64,000 nt of DNA from a virus (lineage: Duplodnaviria; Heunggongvirae; Uroviricota; Caudoviricetes). The stretch spans positions 105,848-169,847 of IMG/VR virus record IMGVR_UViG_3300020048_000021; one strand, given 5' to 3'. Below, in pieces: positions 1,154 through 60,092 of the stretch; within the stretch, counting starts at the first letter, position 1; every line of letters starts with the position of its first letter. The notes beneath the pieces are model-generated. The model saw nothing but the letters and a program-made list of their open reading frames with translations, ran no database searches and was not told the DNA's origin. The position numbers and the translations under genes are program-made.

Positions 1154-1432
1154 ATGGCAAAGTTAAGTAGAGTTGGAGATAAGAATGGCGGTGGCGGACA
1201 AATTGTTCGTGGTAGCAGCACGGTCTTCTGTAATGGAAAGCCTGTTGGATTACACGTTAGTGCTATTACTCCACACTCTCCTAAGCCAAAGAAAAAGCCA
1301 CATAATACAGCTAAAACTACAGACGGTAGTCCAACTGTATTTTGCGATGGAGTAGCGGTACTCAGAGTTGGTAGTGGTAATAGTTGTGGTCATAAAATAA
1401 TAGAAGGTAGTCCGGACGTTAACGTATCATGA
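1154..1432 (+). CDS. PAAR-repeat protein (T4 gp5.4-like spike tip)
   Basis: 92 aa, repeated motif STVFCNGKPVGL / PTVFCDGVAVLRVGS / CGHKIIEGSP typical of PAAR domains. Confidence 0.6.
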   Translation: MAKLSRVGDKNGGGGQIVRGSSTVFCNGKPVGLHVSAITPHSPKPKKKPHNTAKTTDGSPTVFCDGVAVLRVGSGNSCGHKIIEGSPDVNVS

Positions 1433-3972
1433 GTCAAAATGGAAGTTACACACCTCTTCAATTAAATGTATTGTCAGAATTAAAATCTGATAGAGGATTT
1501 GCTATTAACGCTACTGCTCAAGCATTAATGGGCGTATGGAATCCAGCAGGGTATCATCAGGGGAGTGTCAGCTCCAATACAGTGTTGAGTAAATTAACAT
1601 CTAGTATACCTAATTACTATCAATTAACAATTGTAGTTCCTATTCCTGACCCGCCACCTGATCCACCTGAACCAGTAACTAATATTTCAGTTCAAACCTA
1701 TCGTAAGTTGTTATCGTTGGGAGCAGGAATTTGCCCAGCACTAGGTAATAGTTTACCATCAACATTCAAGCCAAGTTATCCTGGATATGGAAGCTGGCAG
1801 GGTGCTACGCTAGCAAGTGATAATTATCCTCCAAAGAATTATCCCAGTAGCGGAGAATACAGTTACGTGTACACTGATTACAATCAGTATTGTTATATTA
1901 CTGGATGGCCTGGAAAAAATAGTTGGCAGAAAGACACTGATACTTATATAGCGGCATTGCCACCTAGTGTAGATGATGTAATACCCACTAGCTATGATGA
2001 ATATTTTAGCAACGGGTTTATTTCTCTGTTGGCTAGACAAGCATATTATGAATTATGGTCGGGACAGTTTAATCAGTATAATGACATTACCAGTTCATTT
2101 TCCACTACTGACAGTAACAAGTCACAAAATAATCAAGAGATATCTAGTTTGATCAATAGTCAAACAATGTCTACCAACTTTAGTAATATCAATGACTTGA
2201 CAACTAATGATGTTAGTGGTGTTAATCTAGCATTTAGATCATGGGGCACTGACTTAGTTAACAGCGGAAAAGTAATTGATTTATCAAATATATCACGATT
2301 TGGAACTCCAAGCGTGTTGTTAATCACGCTACAAAAATACAATGCTCTTACACCAGCGGTTGGTCTAGCATTACAGTATGCTGGATTAACTAGTCAAGAA
2401 TTAGCTAAGATATGTGATCCAACTTATATTCCTACACCAGATCAAGAAAAGAAAATCTATGATTCGTTTAAGCTAATATCAGGTGATGATCTATATAGTT
2501 TGAATGGCGGTATTACATTACAATTAAATTGTAGAATACCAAATCTTCGAACATTGGCAGATTTATTAGATCCATTATATTTATTTCCTAATAGTTATGG
2601 TAGCTTAACTGTACCACAGTACAGACCAGAAACATTAAGCAGCAAGATTTATTATTTAATATATACTAAAGATGCTCTTAATCCTCAAATAACTTCTATA
2701 GTTCAATCAGCATTAAGTCAGCTTATTGGAATATTACCAACTGACGTGGCTACAGCTTGTGCAGCATTTTCTACTAGCATGCAGCAAATTCAGAATATTT
2801 CACAAGGAACTATAGAAAAATTTGGAGTAGCAGTTACCAATTTAGAATTAACTAATAAAGATTTGCCGTTGATTAATCAAGCAACTGGTACTCCTGGAAG
2901 TGTTTCATCTGCTAATCAATTGTTAAACAATACAGCATTGGGTAGTGGTAATTCTGGTGTATATCGTCAGTGTGATTACTTTGGTGCTGCTAGTGGCTAT
3001 CCATATTCAGATTGGATGACAGAGATAACATCAATAATAAATTCACTACCCACTACTGCACTACAGCAAACGTATAAGAATATTTTCAATCTAAGTGTTA
3101 GTCCAACTGCCACAGTAGACGCTGACTTAACTGCTCTATTAGCAACTGCTACTGCTCAAATAACAGCAATTAAGAACAGTAATACTGGACAAGTTAATAG
3201 ATTGAATGATTTGTGGAACAAAATGGGTAATCAATTGTTTATTGAGCAAAGAGCTATCCCATATGCTATTCCAAGAACCACTGATATTACTTCTAATGTT
3301 GATAGTAATAACATCAGTAGTTTTGTAAAGAGCTTAGAGACTTATGCTCAAGACATTGGAGATGGTGAAGCAGCCAAGACATTAGAAGCCATTAGTAATA
3401 TTACTAATTTCGGTGGTCAAAGTGTAGTAGCTGCTATGCGTGAAGCAAGAAATGCTCAACAACTTAACAATGCTGGTATACCACCTAACAACGACGTTTC
3501 AAACGCAATTGACCCGTGTGCTGCCAGCGCAACAGTAGTATTAGGACCAACTGGTAGTATACAGTCAGTGACTATGACTAATCAAAGTACAGGATACAGT
3601 TTGTCGTCACCACCGCAAGTTAACATATATCCATTTGGATACGGAGGATTATTAGTTCCAGTAATAGAAAACGATGGGTCTATTAGTAGATTAATTATAG
3701 CCAATGCTGGTTTAGGATATCAGTATGCTACAGTAACTATAGATAGCCCCCCACAATGTTTGCCAACTACCATTGGTAGTGATACTGCTATTCCTGCTTA
3801 TGCAGCTACAGTTACTAACCCACAAACATTTCCGGGACCAGGACCATTTACAACCTTTAGTTATAATCCATATTTACCAGTGCCATCATTGCCATCACCG
3901 ACTTCTAGTCCCACAGTAGACCAAGCTATCGTAGATGTAATACTTTGCAACTGCGATTGTTGGAACTTGTAG
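1429..3972 (+). CDS. large S/T/N-rich protein, possible virion/adhesin-type structural protein
   Basis: 847 aa ORF translationally coupled (ATGA) to the PAAR gene; proline-rich PDPPPDPPEP linker; no recognisable catalytic motif. Confidence 0.45.
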   Translation: MSQNGSYTPLQLNVLSELKSDRGFAINATAQALMGVWNPAGYHQGSVSSNTVLSKLTSSIPNYYQLTIVVPIPDPPPDPPEPVTNISVQTYRKLLSLGAGICPALGNSLPSTFKPSYPGYGSWQGATLASDNYPPKNYPSSGEYSYVYTDYNQYCYITGWPGKNSWQKDTDTYIAALPPSVDDVIPTSYDEYFSNGFISLLARQAYYELWSGQFNQYNDITSSFSTTDSNKSQNNQEISSLINSQTMSTNFSNINDLTTNDVSGVNLAFRSWGTDLVNSGKVIDLSNISRFGTPSVLLITLQKYNALTPAVGLALQYAGLTSQELAKICDPTYIPTPDQEKKIYDSFKLISGDDLYSLNGGITLQLNCRIPNLRTLADLLDPLYLFPNSYGSLTVPQYRPETLSSKIYYLIYTKDALNPQITSIVQSALSQLIGILPTDVATACAAFSTSMQQIQNISQGTIEKFGVAVTNLELTNKDLPLINQATGTPGSVSSANQLLNNTALGSGNSGVYRQCDYFGAASGYPYSDWMTEITSIINSLPTTALQQTYKNIFNLSVSPTATVDADLTALLATATAQITAIKNSNTGQVNRLNDLWNKMGNQLFIEQRAIPYAIPRTTDITSNVDSNNISSFVKSLETYAQDIGDGEAAKTLEAISNITNFGGQSVVAAMREARNAQQLNNAGIPPNNDVSNAIDPCAASATVVLGPTGSIQSVTMTNQSTGYSLSSPPQVNIYPFGYGGLLVPVIENDGSISRLIIANAGLGYQYATVTIDSPPQCLPTTIGSDTAIPAYAATVTNPQTFPGPGPFTTFSYNPYLPVPSLPSPTSSPTVDQAIVDVILCNCDCWNL

Positions 3973-4007
3973 ATACTATCTACTTGTTATAATCAAAGGA
4001 GAATTAT

Positions 4008-4700
4008 ATGCTTAGTATAAGCAAACTAAAATCATTGACATTATGTGCGACTATCTCAATTATAGTATTACTACTTGGGACAATGTCCTTAAATAATACT
4101 GATTATTTAAAACAGTACGAAGAAAAAAAGAGTGTATTACTAGTCACAGCCGCTCCAAGTTTTATAAGTGAAATGAAACCAATTAAGTTTCCGGACTTAA
4201 CTGAATTTATTATTCAGCCTGTTGAAATTAAATCTGAATTTGTTATCAAAACAGATATTATCAAATTGACCAAACGTGATCAGATCAAGTGTATGGCTCA
4301 TAACATATACTACGAAGCAGGCGGCGAGTCTTATATGGGACAAATCGCAGTTGCTAGAGTAGTGATGAATCGCGTATTACACGGCTTTGCTGAGAATCCA
4401 TGTAAAGTGATTTATCAGACCACGAGAAAAGTAAATGTAGAAACAGAACGAGCTACTATACACTGTCAGTTCTCTTGGGTATGTCATGGAAAGCTTCAGC
4501 CTGATACTACTAGTAACAAATATAAAACAGCAGAAGAAATAGCTGAGCAAGTTATTCACGAAGATAAGTGGAATGATGAAATACCGAACAATGTATTATT
4601 CTTTCACAATAAAAGTGTTAATCCATCATGGCCATACAAAACCGCAATGGTAATCGGCAATCATGTATTTTATTCTTATGGAAAAGAAAAGAAAAATTAA
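4008..4700 (+). CDS. SleB-like cell wall hydrolase with N-terminal membrane anchor
   Basis: N-terminal TM helix; motif MAHNIYYEAGGESYMGQIAVARVVMNRV matches the SleB/CwlJ hydrolase signature. Confidence 0.6.
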   Translation: MLSISKLKSLTLCATISIIVLLLGTMSLNNTDYLKQYEEKKSVLLVTAAPSFISEMKPIKFPDLTEFIIQPVEIKSEFVIKTDIIKLTKRDQIKCMAHNIYYEAGGESYMGQIAVARVVMNRVLHGFAENPCKVIYQTTRKVNVETERATIHCQFSWVCHGKLQPDTTSNKYKTAEEIAEQVIHEDKWNDEIPNNVLFFHNKSVNPSWPYKTAMVIGNHVFYSYGKEKKN

Positions 4701-4702
4701 CA

Positions 4703-5560
4703 CTAGGTTAATTTATTATTTATTTTATCTGTTCTTGCTTTATAAATCGACTCACGACTTTCTACAGTAGCAACAAAAGGCAACAGTAATAAAGCAGGAT
4801 CATATTCTTTGGGATTTCCACTAATGGTTGTCCCAAAGTCATATGATTTTGAGTTAGCATGATGATTGTTATGATATCCTTGACCCCAGTTAGTATATGC
4901 CATTACTGTAATGTTTCTGCTATGATCATTAGTGTCAAAATTACGATATCCCCAGTTTGGAGAATGACACAGTGTATTGACAAAGCTTTCTTGATATAAT
5001 CCAATCACAGCTGGTAGCATTAATCCAAATAGCAGTACTTGCCAGCTAATTAGTCCTACGATAATATATGTACACAATATTATTACTCCATAGTTTTTTG
5101 CAAACCACACATGAGTGGGATTTCTTAATAAGTCTATTACTGAACGAGCATTGAAATAAGAATTCCAGTCCCACATCCATCCATGCCATGAATACCACGT
5201 ACCATGTACTGGACTATGAGCATCTTTTAAGGTGTCACAGTACTTATGATGACTGCCCCGATGTACTGATGCCCAGCCAAGTGGGCTTCCCTGTATTGCT
5301 AAACATGCTATATATAATAATATAGGCTCTAATCCTTTTTTTGCTATGAATGTCATATGACTTACATAACGATGTAATACAACATGAACTCCAATACCGT
5401 ATATCAATGTCCATCCAATTACAAAACTTAATACGTTAATCAATGATATTCCTATCATGACAGTATAACAAATTAATCCTAGCAATGTTACAGCATGAAT
5501 TGGATATAGTATATAAAACAGAAAATCTGTTCCGGTTTTTTCTGTAACAGTATTACTCAT
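4703..5560 (-). CDS. membrane fatty acid desaturase (delta-9 acyl-CoA/acyl-lipid desaturase family)
   Basis: Three histidine boxes HRYVSH, HRGSHHKY(x)DAHSP and HNNHH closely resembling stearoyl-CoA desaturase boxes HRLWSH/HRAHHKF/HNYHH; multiple TM segments. Confidence 0.8.
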   Translation of the reverse strand: MSNTVTEKTGTDFLFYILYPIHAVTLLGLICYTVMIGISLINVLSFVIGWTLIYGIGVHVVLHRYVSHMTFIAKKGLEPILLYIACLAIQGSPLGWASVHRGSHHKYCDTLKDAHSPVHGTWYSWHGWMWDWNSYFNARSVIDLLRNPTHVWFAKNYGVIILCTYIIVGLISWQVLLFGLMLPAVIGLYQESFVNTLCHSPNWGYRNFDTNDHSRNITVMAYTNWGQGYHNNHHANSKSYDFGTTISGNPKEYDPALLLLPFVATVESRESIYKARTDKINNKLT

Positions 5561-6141
5561 GATTGATTCCTTTTGTATTCGGCTACGTACTGATCAGTAA
5601 AATTCACGCTTCTAATACCAATCGGTAAAAAATTACTATATATTTTATCCCAAGCGTTTTTGAGACCAGTGCTTTTGCCCTGTTGAATTCTAGTAAATGC
5701 TTTATATATTGCTTTGTTATACTCGTTACATGTGATCCATAATCTATTATATGATTCGGAATCTTTAATTATAAGAGGTAATATATGATTAGCTATTAAA
5801 TTACGCTGCCTATATTCTGAAAGTACATATGTTCTAGTCAATGCCAATGCAATGTCATCTTTATACCAATTCCAACCAGAACTACATATATAATTATTAT
5901 CTTCTTCTACTATATAATAGTTTCCTATTTTAAATCTATCATGACGTAAGATATAAAATAAATTAGAGTTTTCGTTTTTATAATCTGGGTGATAATTTTT
6001 AATCAGTTCAGATTCAGTGACTTTTTGTAAACCCTTTTCTAAAAGTTTAATCACTTTTGTGTTTGATAAATTCTGTATCTGATGTATTAACATATTACGA
6101 ATATTTATATAATATAGCTGAACTATATTAATTTCGTTCAA
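5557..6141 (-). CDS. hypothetical protein
   Basis: ORF overlapping the desaturase stop by 4 nt, same-strand cassette. Confidence 0.4.
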   Translation of the reverse strand: MNEINIVQLYYINIRNMLIHQIQNLSNTKVIKLLEKGLQKVTESELIKNYHPDYKNENSNLFYILRHDRFKIGNYYIVEEDNNYICSSGWNWYKDDIALALTRTYVLSEYRQRNLIANHILPLIIKDSESYNRLWITCNEYNKAIYKAFTRIQQGKSTGLKNAWDKIYSNFLPIGIRSVNFTDQYVAEYKRNQS

Positions 6142-6721
6142 TAAGTAAATTTTTCGATTTTAAGTGAATTATTAATTCTTCCCAAGTATATGACAGTGAT
6201 CGTTTGATGCTAATACACCATCTCGGAACCTTTCCCATTGTTATGCTATGAGGAATATCAGTTCTGACCAGAGTAGAAACATTTTTAATTTCACGTTGTT
6301 CAATTTCTGTAAGATCATTGATCTTCCATGAAACATATGGAGTATTAGCCATTGTTCTCTCAACACAATTATCTTTTGACAAATCGTAATGATCTTTTGG
6401 AAAATTGTACCATACCATTTTGCTATCATCACCTCCAATTACCCAATTTATTGCCCACGGAACAGCTCCAGTGACTGTTTTGTTTATATCTATGTGTGCA
6501 TAAGGTCTTGTATTGTCGCTTGGATATCGATAAAATAATACGGCACGATATATAGGAATTTCAATTGATTCCATATAGTCTAGCCATTCAGTATTAAAAA
6601 TACTAGAATCGACCACTTGAATATTCATACTATTATTTAATTCACTTACGTCCCAAACCCAGTCTTTTCTTAGTGCATTTGACGTATCTATTTTGAGTTC
6701 ATACCAACAATTGTTATTCAT
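6128..6721 (-). CDS. hypothetical protein
   Basis: ORF in minus-strand cassette 4703-6721. Confidence 0.4.
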   Translation of the reverse strand: MNNNCWYELKIDTSNALRKDWVWDVSELNNSMNIQVVDSSIFNTEWLDYMESIEIPIYRAVLFYRYPSDNTRPYAHIDINKTVTGAVPWAINWVIGGDDSKMVWYNFPKDHYDLSKDNCVERTMANTPYVSWKINDLTEIEQREIKNVSTLVRTDIPHSITMGKVPRWCISIKRSLSYTWEELIIHLKSKNLLIERN

Positions 6722-6735
6722 AATACTATTTATGC

Positions 6736-6790
6736 TGTTGTATTTTTACAACACTAATTATTTGACAATAAATCTGCTTTCCTCTATAAT
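6736..6790 (+). promoter_or_regulatory. PeSL-type cassette: palindrome TGTTGTA-N5-TACAACA followed by sigma70 promoter (TTGACA 6762-6767, TATAAT 6785-6790, 17 bp spacer)
   Basis: exact consensus boxes and 17-bp spacer read from sequence. Confidence 0.7.
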
Positions 6791-7040: not shown

Positions 7041-7093
7041 TGTTGTATTTTTACAACACTTTAGTTGACAGTAATTATAGTATTTGCTATAAT
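7041..7093 (+). promoter_or_regulatory. PeSL-type cassette: palindrome TGTTGTA-N5-TACAACA + promoter TTGACA(7065-7070)-17-TATAAT(7088-7093)
   Basis: sequence read. Confidence 0.7.
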
Positions 7094-19641: not shown

Positions 19642-21033
19642 TTGGCTAATTTAATTTTATGGAACTGTCTCAATGTAGATCATGCATCGATTCGACCTGC
19701 TGGGCCACATCAATTGGCTCATTGGTTACAATTGAACGGTTATACCGTTAAAGTTATAGATTTTTGTCACTCAATGAGTACCGATAATCTGGTCAATATT
19801 ACATTAAAGCATATTGATCTTAATACAATCGGAATAGGAGTTAGTACTACATTTTGGAATAATACCAATAATATTGATCCTAAATCTTTATCAGTAACAA
19901 TGGAACCAGAATGGGTAATAAATGCTAGAGATAGATTAAGTCATTTAAATGTAAAATGGATATTGGGCGGAGCTAATAGTACAAATGTATTCAGTTACGA
20001 TTGGAAAATATTACATGGTCACGCAGAAGATTCATTATTACAATTTATGGATGAACATTCGTCTAAAATTAGCGTAAGACCTCAATTTGATATTAAAAAT
20101 CTAGAAAATTGTTTTTACGATGATTTAGCTATACAAAGTACAGAAGTATTACCAATAGAATTAAGTAGAGGATGTCAGTTCAAATGTAAATTTTGTCGAT
20201 ATCCATTATTGGGAAAGAAAAAGAATACATATATACGAAATTATAAACTTATAGAAACTGAGTTTGTTGAAAATTATGAACGTTATGGAATCACAAAGTA
20301 TTTTTTCTTAGATGATACCGTAAATGAAAGTATTGAAAAGATAGAGGCGTTGGCCGAAATGGCACAACGATTGCCATTCAAACTTAATTGGTTTGGATAT
20401 AATAGATTAGACTTGATAGGCACACGACCATCTACTATTGAGTTATTGAAACATAGTGGATTAAAAAGTGCTTTTTTTGGAATAGAAAGCTTTCATTCTA
20501 AGGCCAGCAAGATTGTGGGCAAAGGATGGAATGGAGTTCATGGTAAAGAATTTTTATTAGAGTTACGTCAGAAATGGGGTAATGACATAAGTTTTCATCT
20601 GGCGTTTATAGCTGGACTTACTGGCGAAACATCTGAAAATTTAGATGATACTCAACGTTGGTGTATAGATAATAATATTGCTAGTTGGAGATTTTCTGGA
20701 TTGCATATTAGCAAAAGTGAAAATCTTGTTTGGAAAAGTGAATTCGATTTAAATCACGGATTATATGGGTATAAATTTCCATACGATGATAAACCAGAAT
20801 TCTGGACTAATAGTTTATGGACTTCTCAGTCTGCGGCTAGTAAAGCAATTCAATTACTAAAAGATTCACAGAAACATATTAAGCCAGCAGTTTGGTTATT
20901 GGGCGAGTTATCGTCATTGGGATATGATTTAGATCATTTAATGAGTAAGTACAAACATGAACTTGACTGGGACGATATTAAAAATCGTAATAAGATATTT
21001 GTTGAAAAATACGTAACAACTCAATTGAAATAA
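19642..21033 (+). CDS. radical SAM enzyme with N-terminal B12-binding-like domain
   Basis: CxxxCxxC motif in GCQFKCKFCRY; N-terminal Rossmann-like segment typical of class B radical SAM; TTG start with RBS AAGGAACAAAGTAATTG. Confidence 0.65.
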   Translation: MANLILWNCLNVDHASIRPAGPHQLAHWLQLNGYTVKVIDFCHSMSTDNLVNITLKHIDLNTIGIGVSTTFWNNTNNIDPKSLSVTMEPEWVINARDRLSHLNVKWILGGANSTNVFSYDWKILHGHAEDSLLQFMDEHSSKISVRPQFDIKNLENCFYDDLAIQSTEVLPIELSRGCQFKCKFCRYPLLGKKKNTYIRNYKLIETEFVENYERYGITKYFFLDDTVNESIEKIEALAEMAQRLPFKLNWFGYNRLDLIGTRPSTIELLKHSGLKSAFFGIESFHSKASKIVGKGWNGVHGKEFLLELRQKWGNDISFHLAFIAGLTGETSENLDDTQRWCIDNNIASWRFSGLHISKSENLVWKSEFDLNHGLYGYKFPYDDKPEFWTNSLWTSQSAASKAIQLLKDSQKHIKPAVWLLGELSSLGYDLDHLMSKYKHELDWDDIKNRNKIFVEKYVTTQLK

Positions 21034-28164: not shown

Positions 28165-29316
28165 TCAAAGCTTGAATAACTTCAAGTGTTCGTGAATACG
28201 GTTCAATGGTTCATCCCAATCGCCAATAGTTGGCTGTCTAAAAATACGACACGATGGATACCACGGACTGTCTTCACGATGTAGTAACCATCTCCAACAA
28301 TTTCCGAATTGATTCAACGGTAGTAACAATGGTTGACCCATTGCACCAGTTAAATGTGCAACAGCAGTATCAATCGATACGACTACATCTAAATTATGAA
28401 TCAATCCCGCAGTATCATTCCAATTTGTAATCGAAAGTGGATACGTGTTTAATCCTAGTTCAATTAATTTATCAGATTGTTCTTGATCGCAGTCAGCTTG
28501 TAAGCTTATCCATTCATAGTTTGGATTACGTTTAACTAATTCAAGCATCTTTTCAAATGGAATAGACTTGTGTTGATTGATCCAACTGTCACGACGACCA
28601 GACCAACAAAACCCAACTCTAAGTTTAGTTTTGGTACCTAATTTTGTTTGCCAATTCTGAATTGATTGTGGGCCAGCACTGATGTATTTTATTTCAGTTG
28701 GAAGATTCTCATACGTAATTTTTAGTACGCCGGGAATACTCATCATTGAAATCCAGTAATCAAATTCTGGTAATATTTCTTCATAAGAGTATACTTGTAT
28801 TGAATCTTTGAACGACATTTTAAACAGTACTTTAAGCACACTTTCACATTGAATAATGACATCTGTGCCTAATAATTTTAATTGTGTAATGAATCGAGAG
28901 AATTGAATATTGTCACCATGACCCTGTTCACACACAATAAGCAATCGTTTATTGTTTAAATCTTCTCCTGACCATCGTGGTTGTTCAAATCGTGGACTTA
29001 ATCCATTCAAGTGTTCGAATTGCCAACGCTTTTCGTATTGCTCCCATCCACGAGTTAAGTCTCCTGATAGTAAATAAGCAACTGCTAAATTGAATTGAGC
29101 TATGCTGTCAGTTGGATCAATGTCAATGGCACATTGCAAGAATCTGATTGCTCTTTCTGGATGTCCCATTTCTCTAATCACATTACCGTAATTGGTATAT
29201 GCAGAACCTAAGTCAGGAAATTGAGCAAATGCTTGGGCATATAAATCAATTGCATCTTTTGGTCGTGAAGTGGCTCTAAAATGAGCGGCTTGTTCAAATA
29301 GTTCTATTAATGTCAT
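28165..29316 (-). CDS. TPR-repeat protein fused to glycosyltransferase family 9 (heptosyltransferase-like) domain
   Basis: N-terminal TPR-like helices; C-terminal EQGHGDNIQFSRF and DTAVAHLTGAMGQPLLLPL resemble GT9 motifs. Confidence 0.55.
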   Translation of the reverse strand: MTLIELFEQAAHFRATSRPKDAIDLYAQAFAQFPDLGSAYTNYGNVIREMGHPERAIRFLQCAIDIDPTDSIAQFNLAVAYLLSGDLTRGWEQYEKRWQFEHLNGLSPRFEQPRWSGEDLNNKRLLIVCEQGHGDNIQFSRFITQLKLLGTDVIIQCESVLKVLFKMSFKDSIQVYSYEEILPEFDYWISMMSIPGVLKITYENLPTEIKYISAGPQSIQNWQTKLGTKTKLRVGFCWSGRRDSWINQHKSIPFEKMLELVKRNPNYEWISLQADCDQEQSDKLIELGLNTYPLSITNWNDTAGLIHNLDVVVSIDTAVAHLTGAMGQPLLLPLNQFGNCWRWLLHREDSPWYPSCRIFRQPTIGDWDEPLNRIHEHLKLFKL

Positions 29317-30257: not shown

Positions 30258-30806
30258 ATGACGCCCGATAACATAAATTCAACATTAATTCAGATTGTAG
30301 ACTCGATTGATGTTGAATCTATTGTAGAATGCTTTCAATCTATGAAAGATATTATTCAATTCACTGAGTCTGGTCACAAGGGCAGTCAATCCGGACTTCA
30401 ATATTTATCAGAAGAAGATCCACATACTAGCGCCGTAGGTCGAGGCAAGGGTCGAGATCATGAATACACATCATTAAATCCCTTATTTGTAGGAACCATT
30501 TTCGAAACCATCATTAATAAATATAAGTTCACACGAACCAGATTAATGTGGGTTAATCATATGTCGTGCTATAGTATGCATAGAGATCCTAGTCCACGAG
30601 TACATATTCCTCTTATCACCAACGAACAATGTTATTTTATATTCAAACATGGATTAATACAGCATTTTCCAGTAGGTTATGTGTATTATACTGACACCAG
30701 ACACGATCATACATTTGCAAACTGTTCAGAAGAAAGACGATTACATTTAGTTGGCGCAGTTGATGATAATTGGATAACTGATAGATTGACAATAAATAAG
30801 AATTAA
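30258..30806 (+). CDS. hypothetical protein, possible cupin/2OG-Fe(II) oxygenase-like
   Basis: MHRDPSPRVH and HDH segments. Confidence 0.3.
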   Translation: MTPDNINSTLIQIVDSIDVESIVECFQSMKDIIQFTESGHKGSQSGLQYLSEEDPHTSAVGRGKGRDHEYTSLNPLFVGTIFETIINKYKFTRTRLMWVNHMSCYSMHRDPSPRVHIPLITNEQCYFIFKHGLIQHFPVGYVYYTDTRHDHTFANCSEERRLHLVGAVDDNWITDRLTINKN

Positions 30807-32368: not shown

Positions 32369-33238
32369 ATGATCACGGTACGCGGCTTTGAAGATAAATT
32401 CTGGACATTTCCCGGTGGGGAACGTTCAGTCAAATTAACCCCGAATGAAAAACAAATTGCTACACAACGAGTTTTTGATGCCACGCCCGCTGGCGAATGG
32501 CCTGTATTTGAAATGCGTATGGACTTTCGTGGTTCAGACGATTTAGTGGATATGATGCTGGCAGTAAACGCTCTACGCAATGCGTATGGGCATGAAATTG
32601 AGTTAACATTGAATGTGCCATATTTCCCATTCTCTCGTCAAGATCGTGTGATGACTGGTGGAGAGTCGTTTGGACTTCAAGTGGTTGCTGATATGATTAA
32701 ACTGTGCAATTTCAAACGTGTTACTACGCTTGATATTCACAGTGATGTAGCTCGCGCAATGTTCCCAGCAGGCGTGTTTGGGAATGTATCGCAAGACACA
32801 GTGTGGGCTACTCGCATCAAAGACTTGACACACTTGGCAGAGTTGGAACTCAACGGAAAAACCGTTATTGTATCGCCTGATGCCGGCGCACTCAAGAAAA
32901 TTTACAAAGTAGCCGCTGCTACAGGATTGCCAGTAGTAGAGGCTAAAAAGATTCGTGACGTTGCCACAGGGCACATTGTCAAGACTGAAATTGATGGCTC
33001 ACAACTTAGTGAGTTTGAACAAGTAGTTATCGTTGACGATATTTGTGACGGTGGACGTACATTCGTAGAACTTGGTAAAGTCATTCGTGATAGCGGGTTT
33101 CGGGGTAGATTAGTACTGTGTGTAACTCACGGTATTTTCTCGAAAGGTCTGGATGTGTTTACTGAGTACTTTGATGAAATTCACACAGTAAACAATATCG
33201 GTGGGGTTGATCTGGTCGCATTTAATAGTGTAAAGTAG
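32369..33238 (+). CDS. ribose-phosphate pyrophosphokinase (PRPP synthetase)-like enzyme; candidate ADP-ribose pyrophosphate synthetase (Adps) of NARP1
   Basis: PRPP-synthetase/PRTase-type architecture including VVIVDDICDGGRTF PRPP-binding loop; directly upstream of NAMPT-like gene. Confidence 0.6.
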   Translation: MITVRGFEDKFWTFPGGERSVKLTPNEKQIATQRVFDATPAGEWPVFEMRMDFRGSDDLVDMMLAVNALRNAYGHEIELTLNVPYFPFSRQDRVMTGGESFGLQVVADMIKLCNFKRVTTLDIHSDVARAMFPAGVFGNVSQDTVWATRIKDLTHLAELELNGKTVIVSPDAGALKKIYKVAAATGLPVVEAKKIRDVATGHIVKTEIDGSQLSEFEQVVIVDDICDGGRTFVELGKVIRDSGFRGRLVLCVTHGIFSKGLDVFTEYFDEIHTVNNIGGVDLVAFNSVK

Positions 33239-33267
33239 TTGACAATAAATCAGTATTTTGATATAAT
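33239..33267 (+). promoter_or_regulatory. sigma70-type promoter TTGACAATAAATC-17-TATAAT in front of the NAMPT-like gene
   Basis: TTGACA 33239-33244, TATAAT 33262-33267. Confidence 0.6.
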
Positions 33268-33298
33268 ATTTACATAGACTAAAGAAAAGGAAAAGAAA

Positions 33299-34798
33299 AT
33301 GAAAATTACAGCACTCACTTCAATGGACTCGTACAAACTGGGTCACGGGGAAATGTACCCCGAAGGCACTACTAAAGTTTACTCAAACTTTACTCCACGT
33401 TCGCTCAAGCATTTGAACATGCCTGATCACTGGAAAGCAGATAACAAAATTGTTTGGTTTGGATTGCAAGGTTTTCTGCACGAACTCAACACAGTTTGGA
33501 AAGAGACATTTTTCGATTTACCCGAAGATGAAATTTGTGACGAGTTTCTTGAATTCGTAGCACCATTTGTCGGGCCCAACGGTTTCAATATTGAACGTAT
33601 TCGTGAATTACATCGTATTGGATACTTGCCACTTGAAATCAAATCTCTGCCAGAAGGATCACGAGTGCCGATTGGTGTGCCAGTATTGACGGTTACTAAC
33701 ACTGTAGCATCAGCATTTTGGTTGCCTAACTTTCTTGAAACATGGCTCTCTGCTGAGTTGTGGAAATCATCGACTTCTGCCACAATGGCACGAGTATATC
33801 GTAAAATTATCGACTCATACGCTGATGCTACAGGCGGCAGCAAAGAGTTTGTCGTATGGCAAGGTCATGACTTCTCAATGCGTGGCATGTCCGGTATTGC
33901 CGATGGTGCAAAATCGGGTGCTGGTCATTTGTTGAGTTTTCTTGGAACTGACGTACTATCAGCAGTCAAGTATGTCAACGACTACTACCATGGTAAATCA
34001 ACCTTTGTTGGTGGTTCGGTGCCTGCTAGTGAGCATAGCGTAATGAGTTCTTCTAGCCGTGATGCTGAGTTGGATACATATCGCTACATCTTGAGCAAAT
34101 ACCCAAGTGGTGTTGTCTCACTTGTATCAGATACATACGACTTTTTCCAAGTGATCACAACATACGCCACGATTCTCAAAGATGATATTCTGAATCGTAC
34201 TCCTGACTCACTTGGCTTGGCTAAAGTTGTGTTTCGTCCTGATTCGGGTGATCCAGTCAAGATTATCACTGGCGATCCAGAGGCACCAGCGGGTTCACCT
34301 GAACATAAAGGTGCTGTTGAATGTTTGTGGGAAATCTTTGGTGGCACAGTAAACAATAAAGGGTACAAAACTCTGAATCAACGTGTTGGTCTTATCTACG
34401 GAGATTCGATTACCATTGAGCGTTGCAAAGATATCCTGTTTATGTTGGCCGCTAAAGGATTCGCAAGTGACAACATTGTATTTGGTATCGGTTCGTACAC
34501 GTATCAGTTTGCTACTCGTGACTCGCTTGGGTTTGCTATGAAAGCTACTCATCGTGTTACTAACGGCGAAGGTGTTGCTATCTTTAAGGATCCTAAGACT
34601 GATTCTGGTACTAAGAAATCTGCTCGTGGCTTACTGTGTGTACATCGTAGCCCACTCTCAGGTGACTATGTATTAGTTGATGGTGTCACAGTAGAAGCCG
34701 AACGTTGTGGTGAGTTGAAGACTGTGTTTCTTGACGGTCAGATTCTTGTTGACGAGACATTTGAAACTATTCGTAAAAGGTTGACAGATAATGCTTAA
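33299..34798 (+). CDS. nicotinamide phosphoribosyltransferase family protein (NadV/NAMPT-like; candidate Namat of NARP1)
   Basis: 499 aa with N-terminal TSMDSYKLGH-type NAMPT motif and overall NAPRTase/NAMPT family length and layout. Confidence 0.7.
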   Translation: MKITALTSMDSYKLGHGEMYPEGTTKVYSNFTPRSLKHLNMPDHWKADNKIVWFGLQGFLHELNTVWKETFFDLPEDEICDEFLEFVAPFVGPNGFNIERIRELHRIGYLPLEIKSLPEGSRVPIGVPVLTVTNTVASAFWLPNFLETWLSAELWKSSTSATMARVYRKIIDSYADATGGSKEFVVWQGHDFSMRGMSGIADGAKSGAGHLLSFLGTDVLSAVKYVNDYYHGKSTFVGGSVPASEHSVMSSSSRDAELDTYRYILSKYPSGVVSLVSDTYDFFQVITTYATILKDDILNRTPDSLGLAKVVFRPDSGDPVKIITGDPEAPAGSPEHKGAVECLWEIFGGTVNNKGYKTLNQRVGLIYGDSITIERCKDILFMLAAKGFASDNIVFGIGSYTYQFATRDSLGFAMKATHRVTNGEGVAIFKDPKTDSGTKKSARGLLCVHRSPLSGDYVLVDGVTVEAERCGELKTVFLDGQILVDETFETIRKRLTDNA

Positions 34799-34976: not shown

Positions 34977-35774
34977 ATGAAACAAATTTTTAAATTAGCA
35001 ATCGTAGCAGGTCTAATCGCAACCACAGTTGGTTGTACCCGTATTGAAACCGGCGAAGTCGGTGTACGAGTTGGCTTTGATAAACAGGTAAAACCAGGTG
35101 AATTGATGCCAGGTTCATTCAATCAAACCTTAATCGGTGATGTACTTACATTTCCTATCCGTGATGTGTCAGTTAAGATTGATAACATGACTCCCTTGGC
35201 TCAAGACAACAGCACCATGAAAGACATGGATGTCACTGTTATCTACAACATCACTCCCGCACAGGTTAGTGAATTGTATGTGAGCAAGAACCGTAGCTTC
35301 CACGTTGTCCACAACGGCGATACTTATTTGATGTACAACTACATATTCAATGCCGCACGAAATGCTGCCTACAAAGCTGCTCGTAAGTATGACGCATTGA
35401 CCATGAACGACAGTCGTGCCCAAATGGAACAGGACATGAAAGAAATCATTGCCAAGACATTGGCTGATGAAAATCTTGCGGGATCAATTACCGTGAGTCA
35501 AGTTCTTATTCGTGCCCTTACACCGGCGGATTCTGTTGTGGCAAGTGCCAACGAATTGGTTCGCTCCAAGAATGAATTGCTGCAAAAAGAAGTTGAAGTT
35601 AAGACCGCCGAAGCAGAATCTCGTCGTATGGCAGCACTTACCAACCAAAGCTCAGCCAGCATTGCTTACATGAACGCTCAGGCTGCGTTGAACATCTCTG
35701 AAGGTGTTAAGAACGGCAAAGTCCAGACTATTATTGTTCCAAGCAATATGACTGGTTTGATGATTGGAAAATAA
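34977..35774 (+). CDS. SPFH/band-7-like lipoprotein
   Basis: signal peptide with lipobox VGC, then TGEVGVRVGF... pattern typical of SPFH domains. Confidence 0.45.
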   Translation: MKQIFKLAIVAGLIATTVGCTRIETGEVGVRVGFDKQVKPGELMPGSFNQTLIGDVLTFPIRDVSVKIDNMTPLAQDNSTMKDMDVTVIYNITPAQVSELYVSKNRSFHVVHNGDTYLMYNYIFNAARNAAYKAARKYDALTMNDSRAQMEQDMKEIIAKTLADENLAGSITVSQVLIRALTPADSVVASANELVRSKNELLQKEVEVKTAEAESRRMAALTNQSSASIAYMNAQAALNISEGVKNGKVQTIIVPSNMTGLMIGK

Positions 35775-35775
35775 A

Positions 35776-36375
35776 ATGGAAGAAATAATTGCGCTATCAA
35801 TTATCGCAATTCTTCTCATTGTTACCATCATCGGTGCTATTCTACTGCGAAGACGTTTTGTTCGCAGTAGAGAGAAGAAATTAACTCAAATAAAAGAGCA
35901 ATGGGAACAAGCTGAATCTCAAGAACGGCAGCGTTTTAAAAAACAGACCGAGTTATTGGCTCAGGCTCGTTCAGAAGAAGAAATACAGTTACGAGATCGT
36001 GCCGAACGACTGCGTATTAAAGGAATGCAAAATGTAACTCCAACATATCCAAATCTTGGTAATGCTGGAGCACAGAGATATGACACTAAGACTGGTACTA
36101 TCCAAACTGTGGTTTATGATAATAAAACTAACGACACTCAATGGAGAACGATTGGTGGCAGCGGTGGGACTACATCAGCGCAACCTGTTACTAATTCCAG
36201 TACCGATTTGTTTACAGGAATGGCTATAGGGAGTTTGGTAAATAGTCTTTTCAGTACACCATCATATTCAAGACCTAGTTCAGATGATAGTGATAGTCAA
36301 AAGTCGGTATCTAGTAGTTCTAGTTCTAGTAGTTGGAGTGATAGCTCAGACAGTGGTCCTAGTTCGGATTGGTAG
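35776..36375 (+). CDS. membrane-anchored protein with serine-rich C-terminus
   Basis: ATG 35776 after upstream TAA; N-terminal TM helix; SSSSSSSSWSDSSDSGPSSDW tail. Confidence 0.45.
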   Translation: MEEIIALSIIAILLIVTIIGAILLRRRFVRSREKKLTQIKEQWEQAESQERQRFKKQTELLAQARSEEEIQLRDRAERLRIKGMQNVTPTYPNLGNAGAQRYDTKTGTIQTVVYDNKTNDTQWRTIGGSGGTTSAQPVTNSSTDLFTGMAIGSLVNSLFSTPSYSRPSSDDSDSQKSVSSSSSSSSWSDSSDSGPSSDW

Positions 36376-48018: not shown

Positions 48019-49173
48019 ATGCAATTTAATAAAACTTTAGTCGCATCAGCAGTACTCGCAATGGGCACAACTGTAGCGCAAGCAGCAGATTCGTCTGTAA
48101 CGCTTTACGGTGTTATCGACGCTGGATTTCAAGTATCTACTCAGAGTTTGGCCAATGGCTATTCAACGAGCAACGTAGGTATTGCCAGTGGTGTTCAACA
48201 AGGAAACCGATTTGGTATCAAAGGATCGGAAGATTTGGGAAATGGTCTACGTGCCACATTCACTCTTGAGTCTGGATTCAATCTTGGAAATGGCGCAAGT
48301 CAACAAGGTGGAACACTTTTCGGACGTCAATCATGGGTTGGGTTAGAAAGTGACAAATTGGGCTACGCTCGTTTGGGTAAACAATATAACTTTGCCACTG
48401 ACTACGTTGGTGCTATTGATCCATTCTTGTTAGGCTTCGGTCAAGCTAACATTGGTGCTACATTCGGTGCTGCCAACACTACACGTTACAACAACATGAT
48501 CAAATATCAATCACCAACATACTCAGGATTCACTGCTGGTGTCGGTTATTCATTTGCTAGTGGTCTAAGCACAGTCTACGCCGATAATGGTGCTGTAGCT
48601 GCTGCAAACACTTACAATTATGCTACAAACAACAACACTCGTGTACTGACAGTTGGCGGAAAATACGCAAGCGGTCCATTAACAGTGGTTGCTTCGTATG
48701 ACGTAATGTATGGTGCTGACAACGTAGTTGGTTCTAATGCCGCTAATCCAAAACAATGGATCTTCGGTGGAGCGTATGACTTCACAGTTGTAAAAGTTGC
48801 AGCCGCATATAGCCAAACCCGAAATGGTTGGATTAATGGTCAAGCTAGTGTAGACCCAACATTCAGTACTAATGCTTATGGTGGTGGTGCAGGTGGTGTA
48901 TTGTTCGACACTAACTTTGGTGCTAACAGCTACATGTTAGGTGCTACTGTTCCAGTAACAGGCGCTCAAAAAGTATTTGCATCATATCAGTATGCTACTC
49001 CAATTACAACATTGGCTAATGCTACTAACTTGAGCATCTACTCTGTTGGTTATCAATATGACTTCTCTAAGCGTACAAATGCGTATGCCTATGTTAGTCA
49101 GGCTCAGAACTATGCCTTCTTAGACGGTGCTAAAAGCACAGTTTATGGTGTAGGTTTACGTCACCAGTTTTAA
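48019..49173 (+). CDS. Gram-negative general porin (Porin_4 / Neisseria-Burkholderia type)
   Basis: signal peptide MQFNKTLVASAVLAMGTTVAQA, mature start ADSSVTLYGVIDAGF, alternating beta-strand pattern, C-terminal RHQF. Confidence 0.7.
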   Translation: MQFNKTLVASAVLAMGTTVAQAADSSVTLYGVIDAGFQVSTQSLANGYSTSNVGIASGVQQGNRFGIKGSEDLGNGLRATFTLESGFNLGNGASQQGGTLFGRQSWVGLESDKLGYARLGKQYNFATDYVGAIDPFLLGFGQANIGATFGAANTTRYNNMIKYQSPTYSGFTAGVGYSFASGLSTVYADNGAVAAANTYNYATNNNTRVLTVGGKYASGPLTVVASYDVMYGADNVVGSNAANPKQWIFGGAYDFTVVKVAAAYSQTRNGWINGQASVDPTFSTNAYGGGAGGVLFDTNFGANSYMLGATVPVTGAQKVFASYQYATPITTLANATNLSIYSVGYQYDFSKRTNAYAYVSQAQNYAFLDGAKSTVYGVGLRHQF

Positions 49174-58749: not shown

Positions 58750-59442
58750 TCAATGAGTGTGTGCTAAACTTGCAATTACTTTTGATACATTAGATGTTGT
58801 AAACGGAACATTAATAATTAAGTGTTGACTATTATCAACCCAGCTAATAGTACGATGTGTCATACGTGTATTAACATAGTATACTTGACCCATTTGTATG
58901 TTCATTTTTCTATCATCCATTAACCAATCATACTGTAATGGCCCACAATTGTTTAAGAATACTATTAAACGAAAACATTCTCGTGGCATACTAGGATGAT
59001 CTCGATGAGGAACAAAGTATCCTCCTATATTAGATTGTACGATGAATGTTCGACCCAACGGTGACCACGAATTTAAAAATGAATGTAAACTAGTACACGC
59101 TCTATACACATCAGTTGGCTCGGTAAATTCTGTCTCACTTACTCTTCGACCAGCCTCGTAACTGGCTTGTGCGTTACTAGGAGAATCAATGTGAGTTTTC
59201 CCGGGAAGATTGGTAAGAGTTAACGCTCGTCTATTATTATGACGATCGGTACGAGGCAAATAATCTACCCAATCATTATTAAATTGACTTATTTCATTCA
59301 TATATTGACCAGTATTAATCCATATATTCAATGGTTCAAATGATCCGAGACTGAGTAACGAGAGTTCATTTGACAATGTTTCATTGTCAACATTTCCCGT
59401 ATACTCAGCAGATCGTCCACTTATTCCTGGTGGTACTTTCAT
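58750..59442 (-). CDS. hypothetical protein, possible cupin/2OG-Fe(II) oxygenase-like
   Basis: VPHRDH (HxD) and downstream MTHRT His. Confidence 0.3.
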   Translation of the reverse strand: MKVPPGISGRSAEYTGNVDNETLSNELSLLSLGSFEPLNIWINTGQYMNEISQFNNDWVDYLPRTDRHNNRRALTLTNLPGKTHIDSPSNAQASYEAGRRVSETEFTEPTDVYRACTSLHSFLNSWSPLGRTFIVQSNIGGYFVPHRDHPSMPRECFRLIVFLNNCGPLQYDWLMDDRKMNIQMGQVYYVNTRMTHRTISWVDNSQHLIINVPFTTSNVSKVIASLAHTH

Positions 59443-60092
59443 ATGTAACTTACCATTGAGTTTATGTCAGATCTTTTTATTCTAGTAGGGATGTCTCTGA
59501 TAGAGGAATGATGATTAGCAAGATCAAACCCCATTTCAACATTGTCATTATAAACTTTCATAGTTTGGCTTATATCATGACTAGTAGCATATCCAAATCC
59601 CATACTAACTATCGCAGTTGACTTAGGCTTGTTTAATCTATCAGCTATTTCTCGACCACCGATACATCCGCAAAATCCTGTATTAACACCTAGTTCTTCT
59701 GCTTGACACATGGCCATTGTAGCACTAATAATACAATCGTTATTAGTTCGTAAGAACTCGTTTTCATTATAATCGTTAACTGCCTGATCAAATTGTTTTG
59801 CTAGCCAAATCATTACAACAGGCGCCAGTACTTGTCCATTATATCTTCGTAGTCCTTCTCCTGGTTTATCTCGTACTTTATCCAAACACGAAGTATTGTC
59901 CCAATACAACCATTGTTTAAATTCTTTGCCGGTAGGACTATCTGTAAGTACAACTATTTCAAAATCATAGTTACCTTGTTTACTTGGCGCCAAATATGCA
60001 CACTCAATTATGGTTTTGATTTTTTCATCTTCGAGTGATCGGTCTTGCCACCATTTGGTTGTGTAACGATTTCTTAAATGATCTAATAACAT
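59439..60092 (-). CDS. hypothetical protein (possible nitroreductase-like fold)
   Basis: 217 aa, 4-nt overlap with downstream minus-strand gene; weak resemblance only. Confidence 0.3.
   Translation of the reverse strand: MLLDHLRNRYTTKWWQDRSLEDEKIKTIIECAYLAPSKQGNYDFEIVVLTDSPTGKEFKQWLYWDNTSCLDKVRDKPGEGLRRYNGQVLAPVVMIWLAKQFDQAVNDYNENEFLRTNNDCIISATMAMCQAEELGVNTGFCGCIGGREIADRLNKPKSTAIVSMGFGYATSHDISQTMKVYNDNVEMGFDLANHHSSIRDIPTRIKRSDINSMVSYI

Follow-up and report, generated by a model that had tools for sequence, protein, structure and literature searches.

A predominantly viral clade of membrane desaturases and its conserved partner genes, viewed from a large T4-like phage

A 64,000-nucleotide stretch of tailed-phage DNA (positions 105,848 to 169,847 of the IMG/VR record IMGVR_UViG_3300020048_000021; the window in what follows) encodes, at positions 4008-5560, a fatty acid desaturase directly beside a cell-wall hydrolase, and this locus raises the question of what the phage desaturase does and with which other genes it works. 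Phage desaturases are usually read as host-copied auxiliary genes for 'membrane fluidity'. The initial annotation, made from the sequence alone, described a rare viral desaturase that would change the fluidity of host membranes and tied it to the adjacent hydrolase. We correct two misreadings in this description, namely the rarity of viral desaturases and the interpretation of adjacency to a wall hydrolase as shared function: phage desaturases are already known, and the genes conserved alongside this one hold more interest than the proposed pairing. The desaturase represents a clade that has its own active-site signature and non-redox partners (an acyltransferase, an ATP-pyrophosphatase, and an uncharacterized protein), a combination that points to a phage-borne pathway for a lipid or an acyl metabolite. 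Both genes have exactly the coordinates given in the initial annotation:

4008-4700, plus strand: SleB-type (Hydrolase_2) wall hydrolase, 230 amino acids, complete; Pfam PF07486 with an E-value of 5.7e-21, and matches to PHROG endolysin families
4703-5560, minus strand: desaturase, 285 amino acids, complete; predicted four-helix membrane di-iron enzyme with the fold of stearoyl-CoA desaturase 1 (SCD1), member of the HX3HH clade

In a phmmer comparison of the desaturase with all PDB sequences, the sole meaningful scores were those of mouse SCD1 (4ymk, E-value 1.8e-12) and human SCD1 (4zyo, E-value 3.6e-12), and the alignment spans all metal-ligand motifs at an identity of about 23%. The assignment of metal ligands in SCD1 follows the published structures. 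The corresponding motifs of the phage protein are the following:

5357-5374, minus strand: histidine box 1, HRYVSH (H63, H68); HX4H as in Delta-9 desaturases, aligned with HRLWSH of SCD1
5246-5263, minus strand: histidine box 2, HRGSHH (H100, H104, H105); HX3HH, one residue longer than HRAHH of SCD1
4964-4978, minus strand: NTLCH (N195, H199); asparagine and ninth histidine, located where the fourth membrane helix ends, aligned with NSAAH of SCD1
4859-4873, minus strand: histidine box 3, HNNHH (H230, H233, H234), aligned with HNYHH of SCD1

The three histidine boxes reported initially are thus all present and all align with SCD1; in the family alignment of 82 homologues none of the nine histidines varies, and N195 is almost as strictly conserved. 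The canonical Delta-9 spacing (HX4H/HX2HH/HX2HH) is kept in boxes 1 and 3 but not in box 2, which still fits the general superfamily motif HX(2-3)HH. The statement that the boxes closely match stearoyl-CoA desaturase therefore holds for the alignment of the ligand motifs and goes too far for the remainder, given the low overall identity, the extra residue in box 2, the absence of a Pfam FA_desaturase match to the window protein at an E-value of 0.01, and a score of 52 bits on the NCBIfam DesA family model, for which the cut-off is 400. PF00487 is present in most of the homologues (35-66% identity).

The AlphaFold model of the desaturase, built on the family alignment, has a pLDDT (predicted local distance difference test) score of 95.4 and a pTM (predicted template modelling score) of 0.91. 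A Foldseek search of this model against the PDB returned the SCD1 structures 4zyo, 4ymk and 6wf2 at the top (template modelling (TM) score 0.66, 247 aligned columns, E-value 3e-8), followed by AlkB with a TM score of 0.42. The hydropathy profile contains two long hydrophobic hairpins (residues 12-62 and 153-190), as in SCD1. The ratio of nonsynonymous to synonymous substitution rates (dN/dS) is 0.16 relative to the orthologue in a related locus (L003), which is about 78-79% identical; this value, the intact ligands, and the model together indicate that the gene is real, intact, and under constraint. The assignment to the Delta-9-type (SCD/DesC/OLE1) desaturases is thus borne out, and our best explanation is that the product of the open reading frame (ORF) 4703-5560 is a functional membrane desaturase with a di-iron site, dependent on O2 and of the SCD/DesC (Delta-9-type) fold.

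We considered whether this fold might serve another chemistry, as in a hydroxylase or other oxidase, or act on a non-lipid substrate, and we regard this as unlikely. Precedents exist within the wider histidine-box superfamily (AlkB, OlsE, and the rhizobitoxine desaturase RtxC), and the HX3HH spacing of box 2 is that of the alkane hydroxylases (EHxxGHH in AlkB). The family also conserves a specific additional histidine, H22, which is absent from SCD1, and the R-D pair that precedes box 2 in SCD1, which we take to be a contact with CoA, is replaced by S-V in the alignment. In addition, partners of the PP-loop and GNAT types, described below, are typical of small-molecule tailoring. In contrast, SCD1 is a far better structural match than AlkB by the TM scores given above, the Delta-9 pattern is seen in box 1, in N-x3-H, and in HNNHH, and the homologues score on Pfam FA_desaturase and not on FA_hydroxylase.

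Relatives of the desaturase proved to be widespread among viruses. At least 558 IMG/VR viral contigs encode them, and the genomic contexts that were inspected are phage-like. A large protein database yielded 236 relatives, with about 100 short ones (about 275-285 amino acids) that are 50-83% identical, many of them on contigs of 100-370 kb. Desaturases have also been reported from Arctic brine viruses (PMC7300359), and an acyl-CoA desaturase is carried by a Lake Baikal phage (PMC7678222), a stearoyl-CoA desaturase by freshwater pelagimyophages (PMC7029224), and a desaturase by a pelagiphage scaffold (PMC11480375), while DesC-like desaturases of cyanophages, when expressed in yeast, act as Delta-9 enzymes on C16 chains (PMC5776448). 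The claim that viral desaturases are rare is contradicted by these numbers and published cases. The sole relative in a genuine cultured-phage record is a gene of the Pelagibacter phage Mosig, and no cyanophage record matches the desaturase at an E-value of 1e-3. Two desaturase hits filed under 'Acinetobacter phage MD-2021a' were not counted as phage carriage, because they lie on what looks like mislabelled bacterial chromosome; in the record L168 (CAKLQH020000002.1), trpC, btuB, ugpQ, and baeSR surround the desaturase gene.

Cellular relatives are far more distant. Using one genome each for 185,579 prokaryotic species, we found the best cellular match at 43% identity, compared with 58-83% for viral and metagenomic relatives, on a 9-kb contig of a metagenome-assembled genome (MAG); this contig itself bears genes of the cassette described below and is probably viral. 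The next cellular matches were Duganella sacchari at 37% and others at no more than 35%. Among cyanobacteria, identity reached 26% for the best Synechococcus contig and 34% for the Gloeobacterales. Contigs of 6-13 kb assigned to MAGs of Pseudobdellovibrionaceae and Nitrososphaerales (L008, L025, L028) carry members of gene clusters c1, c2, c4, c5, c10, and c14, and are probably phage DNA misbinned into these MAGs.

The box 2 spacing follows the same division. The HX3HH form occurs in 82 of 93 viral copies versus 2 of 79 copies on cellular contigs, and cassette genes lie near 77 of the 82 viral HX3HH copies versus 4 of 69 cellular HX2HH copies. In a neighbour-joining tree, calculated without support values, the HX3HH sequences group together in a single 75-member clade, with the copy of Duganella nested inside. 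By its sequences, the clade of the window desaturase is thus distinct, almost confined to viruses, and marked by a one-residue insertion in box 2, HRG[S/Y]HH.

Which genes accompany the desaturase in the window is apparent from its transcription unit. The desaturase is the last gene of a minus-strand operon that opposes its plus-strand neighbours, and it follows two genes, a cupin oxygenase-like gene and a GNAT gene, which the initial annotation missed:

5557-6093, minus strand: GNAT-fold, acyl-CoA N-acyltransferase-like partner, 178 amino acids; its TGA stop codon overlaps the desaturase ATG (ATGA)
6128-6721, minus strand: cupin, first gene of the operon, 197 amino acids; HxD...H...R motif, with H76, D78, and H158 invariant and R167 nearly so
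6762-6790, plus strand: perfect sigma-70 consensus promoter (TTGACA-17-TATAAT, 12 of 12 positions) for divergent plus-strand genes; upstream boundary of the minus-strand operon

The ATGA overlap shows that the desaturase is translationally coupled to the GNAT gene. The product of ORF 5557-6093 has the alpha/beta fold of the GNAT proteins, and its dN/dS of 0.15 reflects a constraint like that on the desaturase. The cupin had no direct match in Pfam or the PDB; in an hhalign comparison with gene cluster c3, which scores on Pfam Asp_Arg_Hydrox, it was matched with a probability of 94.9% and an E-value of 4e-8. On these profile comparisons we classify it as a distant paralogue of the 2-oxoglutarate oxygenases of Asp/Arg beta-hydroxylase type. 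The minus-strand operon itself yielded no promoter comparable to that at 6762-6790 and nothing resembling a terminator. A second 12-of-12 promoter of the same TTGACA-17-TATAAT form is located at 7065-7093 on the plus strand, and both stand before small plus-strand genes, like early promoters of T4.

To define the gene neighbourhood of the desaturase across relatives, genes in the collected loci were called by a simple longest-ORF rule and then clustered. Dereplication at 90% desaturase identity left 62 viral loci, in which we counted the genes lying no more than three genes from the desaturase. A recurrent same-strand cassette surrounds the desaturase, with three partners: a GNAT protein, a PP-loop ATPase (c1), and a protein of about 200 amino acids (c4), the last two likewise missing from the initial description. 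The PP-loop gene is present in 52 of the 62 loci, a GNAT gene (c2 or c13) in 46, and c4 also in 46; all three occur together in 35 loci, and at least one of them in 57. In contrast, a SleB-type hydrolase is near the desaturase in 2 of 62. The cassette is found in two arrangements, GNAT>c1>c4>DES and GNAT< DES>c1>c4 (DES, desaturase); since both gene orders occur, the adjacency has outlasted rearrangement among phages whose desaturases are 35-58% identical.

The c1 proteins are about 310 amino acids long and have a near-invariant SGGxDSE PP-loop motif. Their matches are confined to the PP-loop region (NAD synthetase with an E-value of 8e-7, QueC, Cap9, MnmA, and Asn synthase), and the Pfam and NCBIfam matches to QueC, Asn_synthase, and NAD_synthase are all under the specific family cut-offs. 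For c4, there was no PDB sequence match, the Pfam matches to GNAT models were faint, and an hhalign comparison with the GNAT cluster gave a probability of just 17%. The islands of relatives also include oxygenases of Asp/Arg beta-hydroxylase type (c3, c5, c26), a fatty-acid hydroxylase family (c14), TauD, and radical-SAM proteins. Source annotations of the cluster members read merely 'fatty-acid desaturase' or 'hypothetical protein', and a literature search on the combination of desaturase, PP-loop protein, and acetyltransferase returned nothing relevant.

The cassette is also present in a cultured bacterium, Duganella sacchari Sac-22 (L009 2820-9585, NZ_FRCX01000005.1), where c1, c4, the desaturase, the GNAT gene, a gene for a 210-amino-acid protein, c8, and a cupin gene run in one direction and the desaturase is 55% identical to a phage copy. 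Genetics and lipidomics are therefore feasible without isolation of a phage. None of c1, c4, c8, and c14 was found anywhere in the 64-kb window. The nearest relative has the PP-loop gene in the interval that separates desaturase and hydrolase, from which it follows that the window phage has lost this gene from that site or moved it; it may carry a reduced core of cupin, GNAT, and desaturase.

Based on these associations, we lean, though not strongly, towards the interpretation that the desaturase works together with the GNAT acyltransferase on an acylated lipid or metabolite rather than on bulk phospholipid. The desaturase would insert a cis double bond into a fatty-acyl chain using O2, and the acyl substrate would be a lipid or an acylated metabolite made or handled by the GNAT protein. 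Where relatives have the PP-loop enzyme, its role would be to activate a carboxylate so that an amide can form. Electrons may come from a ferredoxin or flavodoxin of the host, a donor proposed because no donor domain is fused to the desaturase. By analogy, the likely target would be an envelope lipid, such as an aminolipid-like molecule with an N-acyl group or an acyl chain of the lipid A type, since families of the LpxO/OlsC type and of the OlsE or fatty-acid-hydroxylase type are found beside the cassette. LpxO, OlsC, and OlsD are Asp_Arg_Hydrox oxygenases, whereas OlsE is a member of the di-iron hydroxylase superfamily, and all have lipid-tailoring roles (PMC12971839).

Several considerations weigh against this interpretation. 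Small GNAT proteins usually transfer acetyl groups and not long acyl chains, and the GNAT partner has no specific family assignment. The PP-loop gene and c4 are absent from the window, so that they are either elsewhere in the genome of about 170 kb or the desaturase and GNAT work without them. The gene for ThyX is also found in the island, and part of the synteny is therefore conserved phage backbone only. Relatives were gathered with two conserved peptide patterns, a possible bias in the viral versus cellular comparison. Substrate, product, and regiospecificity are not readable from sequence. Finally, the viral fatty acid desaturases (vFADs) of cyanophages act alone on the C16 chains of yeast lipids (PMC5776448), and stand-alone lipid desaturation remains a simple alternative.

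In this alternative, which we consider possible without favouring it, the gene is an auxiliary metabolic gene for a stand-alone Delta-9 acyl-lipid desaturase that desaturates the chains of host phospholipids and raises fluidity, for example in cold, oxygenated fresh water, and the GNAT gene is unrelated. The fold and ligands are indeed SCD1/DesC-like and the HX4H spacing of box 1 is typical of Delta-9 enzymes; the cyanophage vFADs do act in this way in yeast (PMC5776448), and the same role has been proposed for the Arctic and Baikal phages (PMC7300359, PMC7678222). In addition, the desaturase of the window phage is under purifying selection in a window devoid of the PP-loop gene and c4. However, the insertion in box 2 co-varies with the cassette, the desaturase start overlaps the GNAT stop, and a bacterial operon as well as 57 of the 62 viral loci have at least one cassette partner near the desaturase. 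Ordinary lipid desaturation would have no use for such partners, none of which is an electron donor. The clade is also unrelated to the host-derived vFAD-I and vFAD-II, given the 26% identity of the best Synechococcus contig.

A more far-reaching form of the cooperative reading, which we offer tentatively, is that the cassette of GNAT, PP-loop, c4, and HX3HH desaturase constitutes an undescribed pathway, found mainly in large aquatic phages and often together with oxygenases of LpxO/OlsC and fatty-acid-hydroxylase type, that would make or remodel an acylated metabolite or an envelope lipid with an unsaturated, amide-linked N-acyl chain in the infected cell, and that the copy in Duganella sacchari arose by exchange with phages.

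Comparison with known systems delimits what is particular to the window desaturase. With SCD1 (4ymk, 4zyo, 6wf2) it shares the four-helix membrane fold, a cytosolic di-iron cap, the nine histidines and the asparagine, and the HX4H and HNxHH motifs. It differs in length (285 versus about 355 amino acids, without the long N-terminal extension) and in the additional residue of box 2; moreover, its gene is in a phage operon with a GNAT gene, and a cytochrome b5 system is not expected in a bacterial host. The cyanophage vFAD-I and vFAD-II are likewise phage-encoded Delta-9-type membrane desaturases of similar size, present as auxiliary metabolic genes in T4-like myophages. In contrast to the vFADs, whose identity to picocyanobacterial DesC reaches about 70% and which are evidently host-acquired (PMC5776448), the window desaturase has no more than 26-34% identity to the cyanobacterial contigs found, and this places it outside the vFADs. 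The window clade has conserved non-redox partners and almost no cellular members, and the demonstrated activity is that of the vFADs.

The desaturase of Pelagibacter phage Mosig (MT647606, Kyanoviridae; FA_desaturase, 216 amino acids) matches the window protein with an E-value of 4e-7 and 25% identity. Its island includes Asp_Arg_Hydrox, TauD, nitroreductase, and N-acetyltransferase genes, kinds also found in the window, but its boxes are of the SCD type (HRMHH and HKNHH) and no homologues of c1, c2, or c4 are alongside. The pathways for tailoring ornithine lipids and lipid A (OlsB, OlsC/OlsD/LpxO, OlsE) share three kinds of enzyme with the phage island, namely an N-acyltransferase, 2-oxoglutarate oxygenases of LpxO type, and a histidine-box di-iron enzyme, which in those pathways modify head groups or lipid-bound acyl chains. 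This likeness is an analogy by enzyme kind only, and the known Ols pathway has neither a PP-loop enzyme nor a desaturase.

The remaining part of the question concerns the neighbour on the other side. The initial description of a SleB-like hydrolase with an N-terminal membrane anchor is confirmed by the following features, given with the two genes upstream of it:

4323-4673, plus strand: Hydrolase_2 catalytic domain (residues 106-222), with the YYEAGGE motif (E103, E107) directly upstream
4035-4091, plus strand: N-terminal hydrophobic signal-anchor LTLCATISIIVLLLGTMSL (residues 10-28), with a Kyte-Doolittle mean of 2.24 over 19 residues
1154-1432, plus strand: PAAR-motif protein, from its Pfam PAAR annotation
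1429-3972, plus strand: 847-amino-acid protein with a weak baseplate-wedge match (PHROG 438, E-value 6e-6)

The Hydrolase_2 score is 75.5 bits against a gathering cut-off of 27. The protein aligns with the SleB catalytic domains 4f55 and 4fet through YYEAGGESYMGQIAVARVVMNRV, and E103 and E107 retain both glutamates of the SleB YGESRGE motif (YxE-xxGE). Of the 19 residues of the anchor, 8 are small or polar, and the abundance of Thr, Ser, Gly, and Ala in the segment resembles that of signal-anchor-release (SAR) domains; a comparable N-terminal hydrophobic stretch is present in all nine distinct orthologues (9 of 9), with a sequence that varies among them. The start codon of the hydrolase gene has an AAGGAG ribosome-binding site before it. 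The catalytic domain has relatives in 777 deposited phage genomes, mostly annotated as endolysin, and matches over the full length including the anchor come from Xanthomonas jumbo phages.

Assignment as a true SleB was rejected, as the protein has no peptidoglycan-binding domain and scores 38.5 bits on TIGR02869, for which the equivalog cut-off is 236.5. With the SleB/Hydrolase_2 endolysins, which use this domain in hundreds of phages, the window protein shares the catalytic domain and the YxE-xxGE motif; in place of the peptidoglycan-binding domain of SleB it has the transmembrane anchor, followed by about 75 residues of linker, and unlike phage endolysins its gene is beside baseplate-type genes and not in a lysis cassette. 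As judged from these domains, it is an ordinary predicted signal-anchored muralytic enzyme, either an endolysin or a tail-associated lysin.

We also weighed the original proposal that the desaturase and the hydrolase form one unit that weakens membrane and wall at lysis, and found it very improbable. The genes are indeed only 2 nt apart and both products are membrane-associated; in addition, the three-gene block of PAAR, 847-amino-acid protein, and hydrolase (c24-c19-c18), which recurs in L003, L106, L118, L125, L136, and L144, is near the desaturase cassette in the last five of these, which are diverged loci. However, the two genes converge from opposite strands and therefore cannot share a transcript; 2 nt separate their stop codons, and no terminator-like structure was found between them. 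The PP-loop gene separates them in the closest relative, and only the 2 of 62 loci counted above have the hydrolase as near as three genes from the desaturase.

The hydrolase instead follows the PAAR and 847-amino-acid genes and is always co-directional with them. It also diverges like the structural genes: identity to the relative is 56% for the hydrolase and 62% for structural genes of the PAAR block, compared with 78% for the desaturase, and the 847-amino-acid protein is 57-62% identical in related metagenomic phages. From this orientation and pace of divergence, the hydrolase is a member of the PAAR/847-amino-acid block, and its contact with the desaturase reflects the insertion site of the cassette.

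The phage itself is a large T4-like myophage. The window encodes rIIA (PHROG E-value 9e-131), two RNA ligases, and nicotinamide phosphoribosyltransferase (NAMPT), and a close relative, a 206-kb scaffold, also has rIIB and ribonucleotide reductase. Since megablast gave no DNA-level match to positions 3500-6500 among 50,697 deposited phage genomes and tblastn gave no relative of the 847-amino-acid protein (1429-3972) in deposited phage genomes, the lineage is uncultured. Among the genes more distant from the desaturase are the following:

30258-30806, plus strand: oxygenase of Asp/Arg beta-hydroxylase type (cluster c3); Pfam PF05118 with an E-value of 2e-5, and 53% identity in tblastn to the c3 member of L116
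34977-35774, plus strand: SPFH/Band_7 protein; Band_7 E-value 1.5e-20, lipobox-like signal peptide ending in ATTVGC, match to PHROG 200 'lipoprotein'
48019-49173, plus strand: Gram-negative porin, full length; Pfam Porin_4 E-value 4.2e-44, signal peptide end VAQA/ADSS, C-terminus RHQF

The c3 family flanks the desaturase cassette in many relatives. The SPFH lipoprotein, with its lipobox-like TVGC, agrees with the initial annotation; ORF 35764-36375 overlaps its gene and may encode a partner. The porin has a single weak relative among the 50,697 phage records, and a phage-encoded porin is unusual; it hints at a betaproteobacterial (Burkholderiales-type) host. As for the suggestion of extensive membrane engineering by the phage, envelope-related genes are present (the SPFH gene, the porin, and a weak match to a GT9 glycosyltransferase), but the genes cited are spread over 45 kb and have no shared organization.

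Further auxiliary-type genes (19642-21033, 28165-29316, 32369-34798, 59439-60092) encode a radical-SAM protein and a tetratricopeptide repeat (TPR) protein with the weak heptosyltransferase (GT9) match, and the same set includes a gene similar to phosphoribosyl pyrophosphate (PRPP) synthetase, beside NAMPT, and a nitroreductase gene. The window also contains 32 tRNA genes, all on the plus strand and arranged in several clusters between 11447 and 31175, including three for tRNA-Met, one for tRNA-Ile(tat), and one with an undetermined anticodon.

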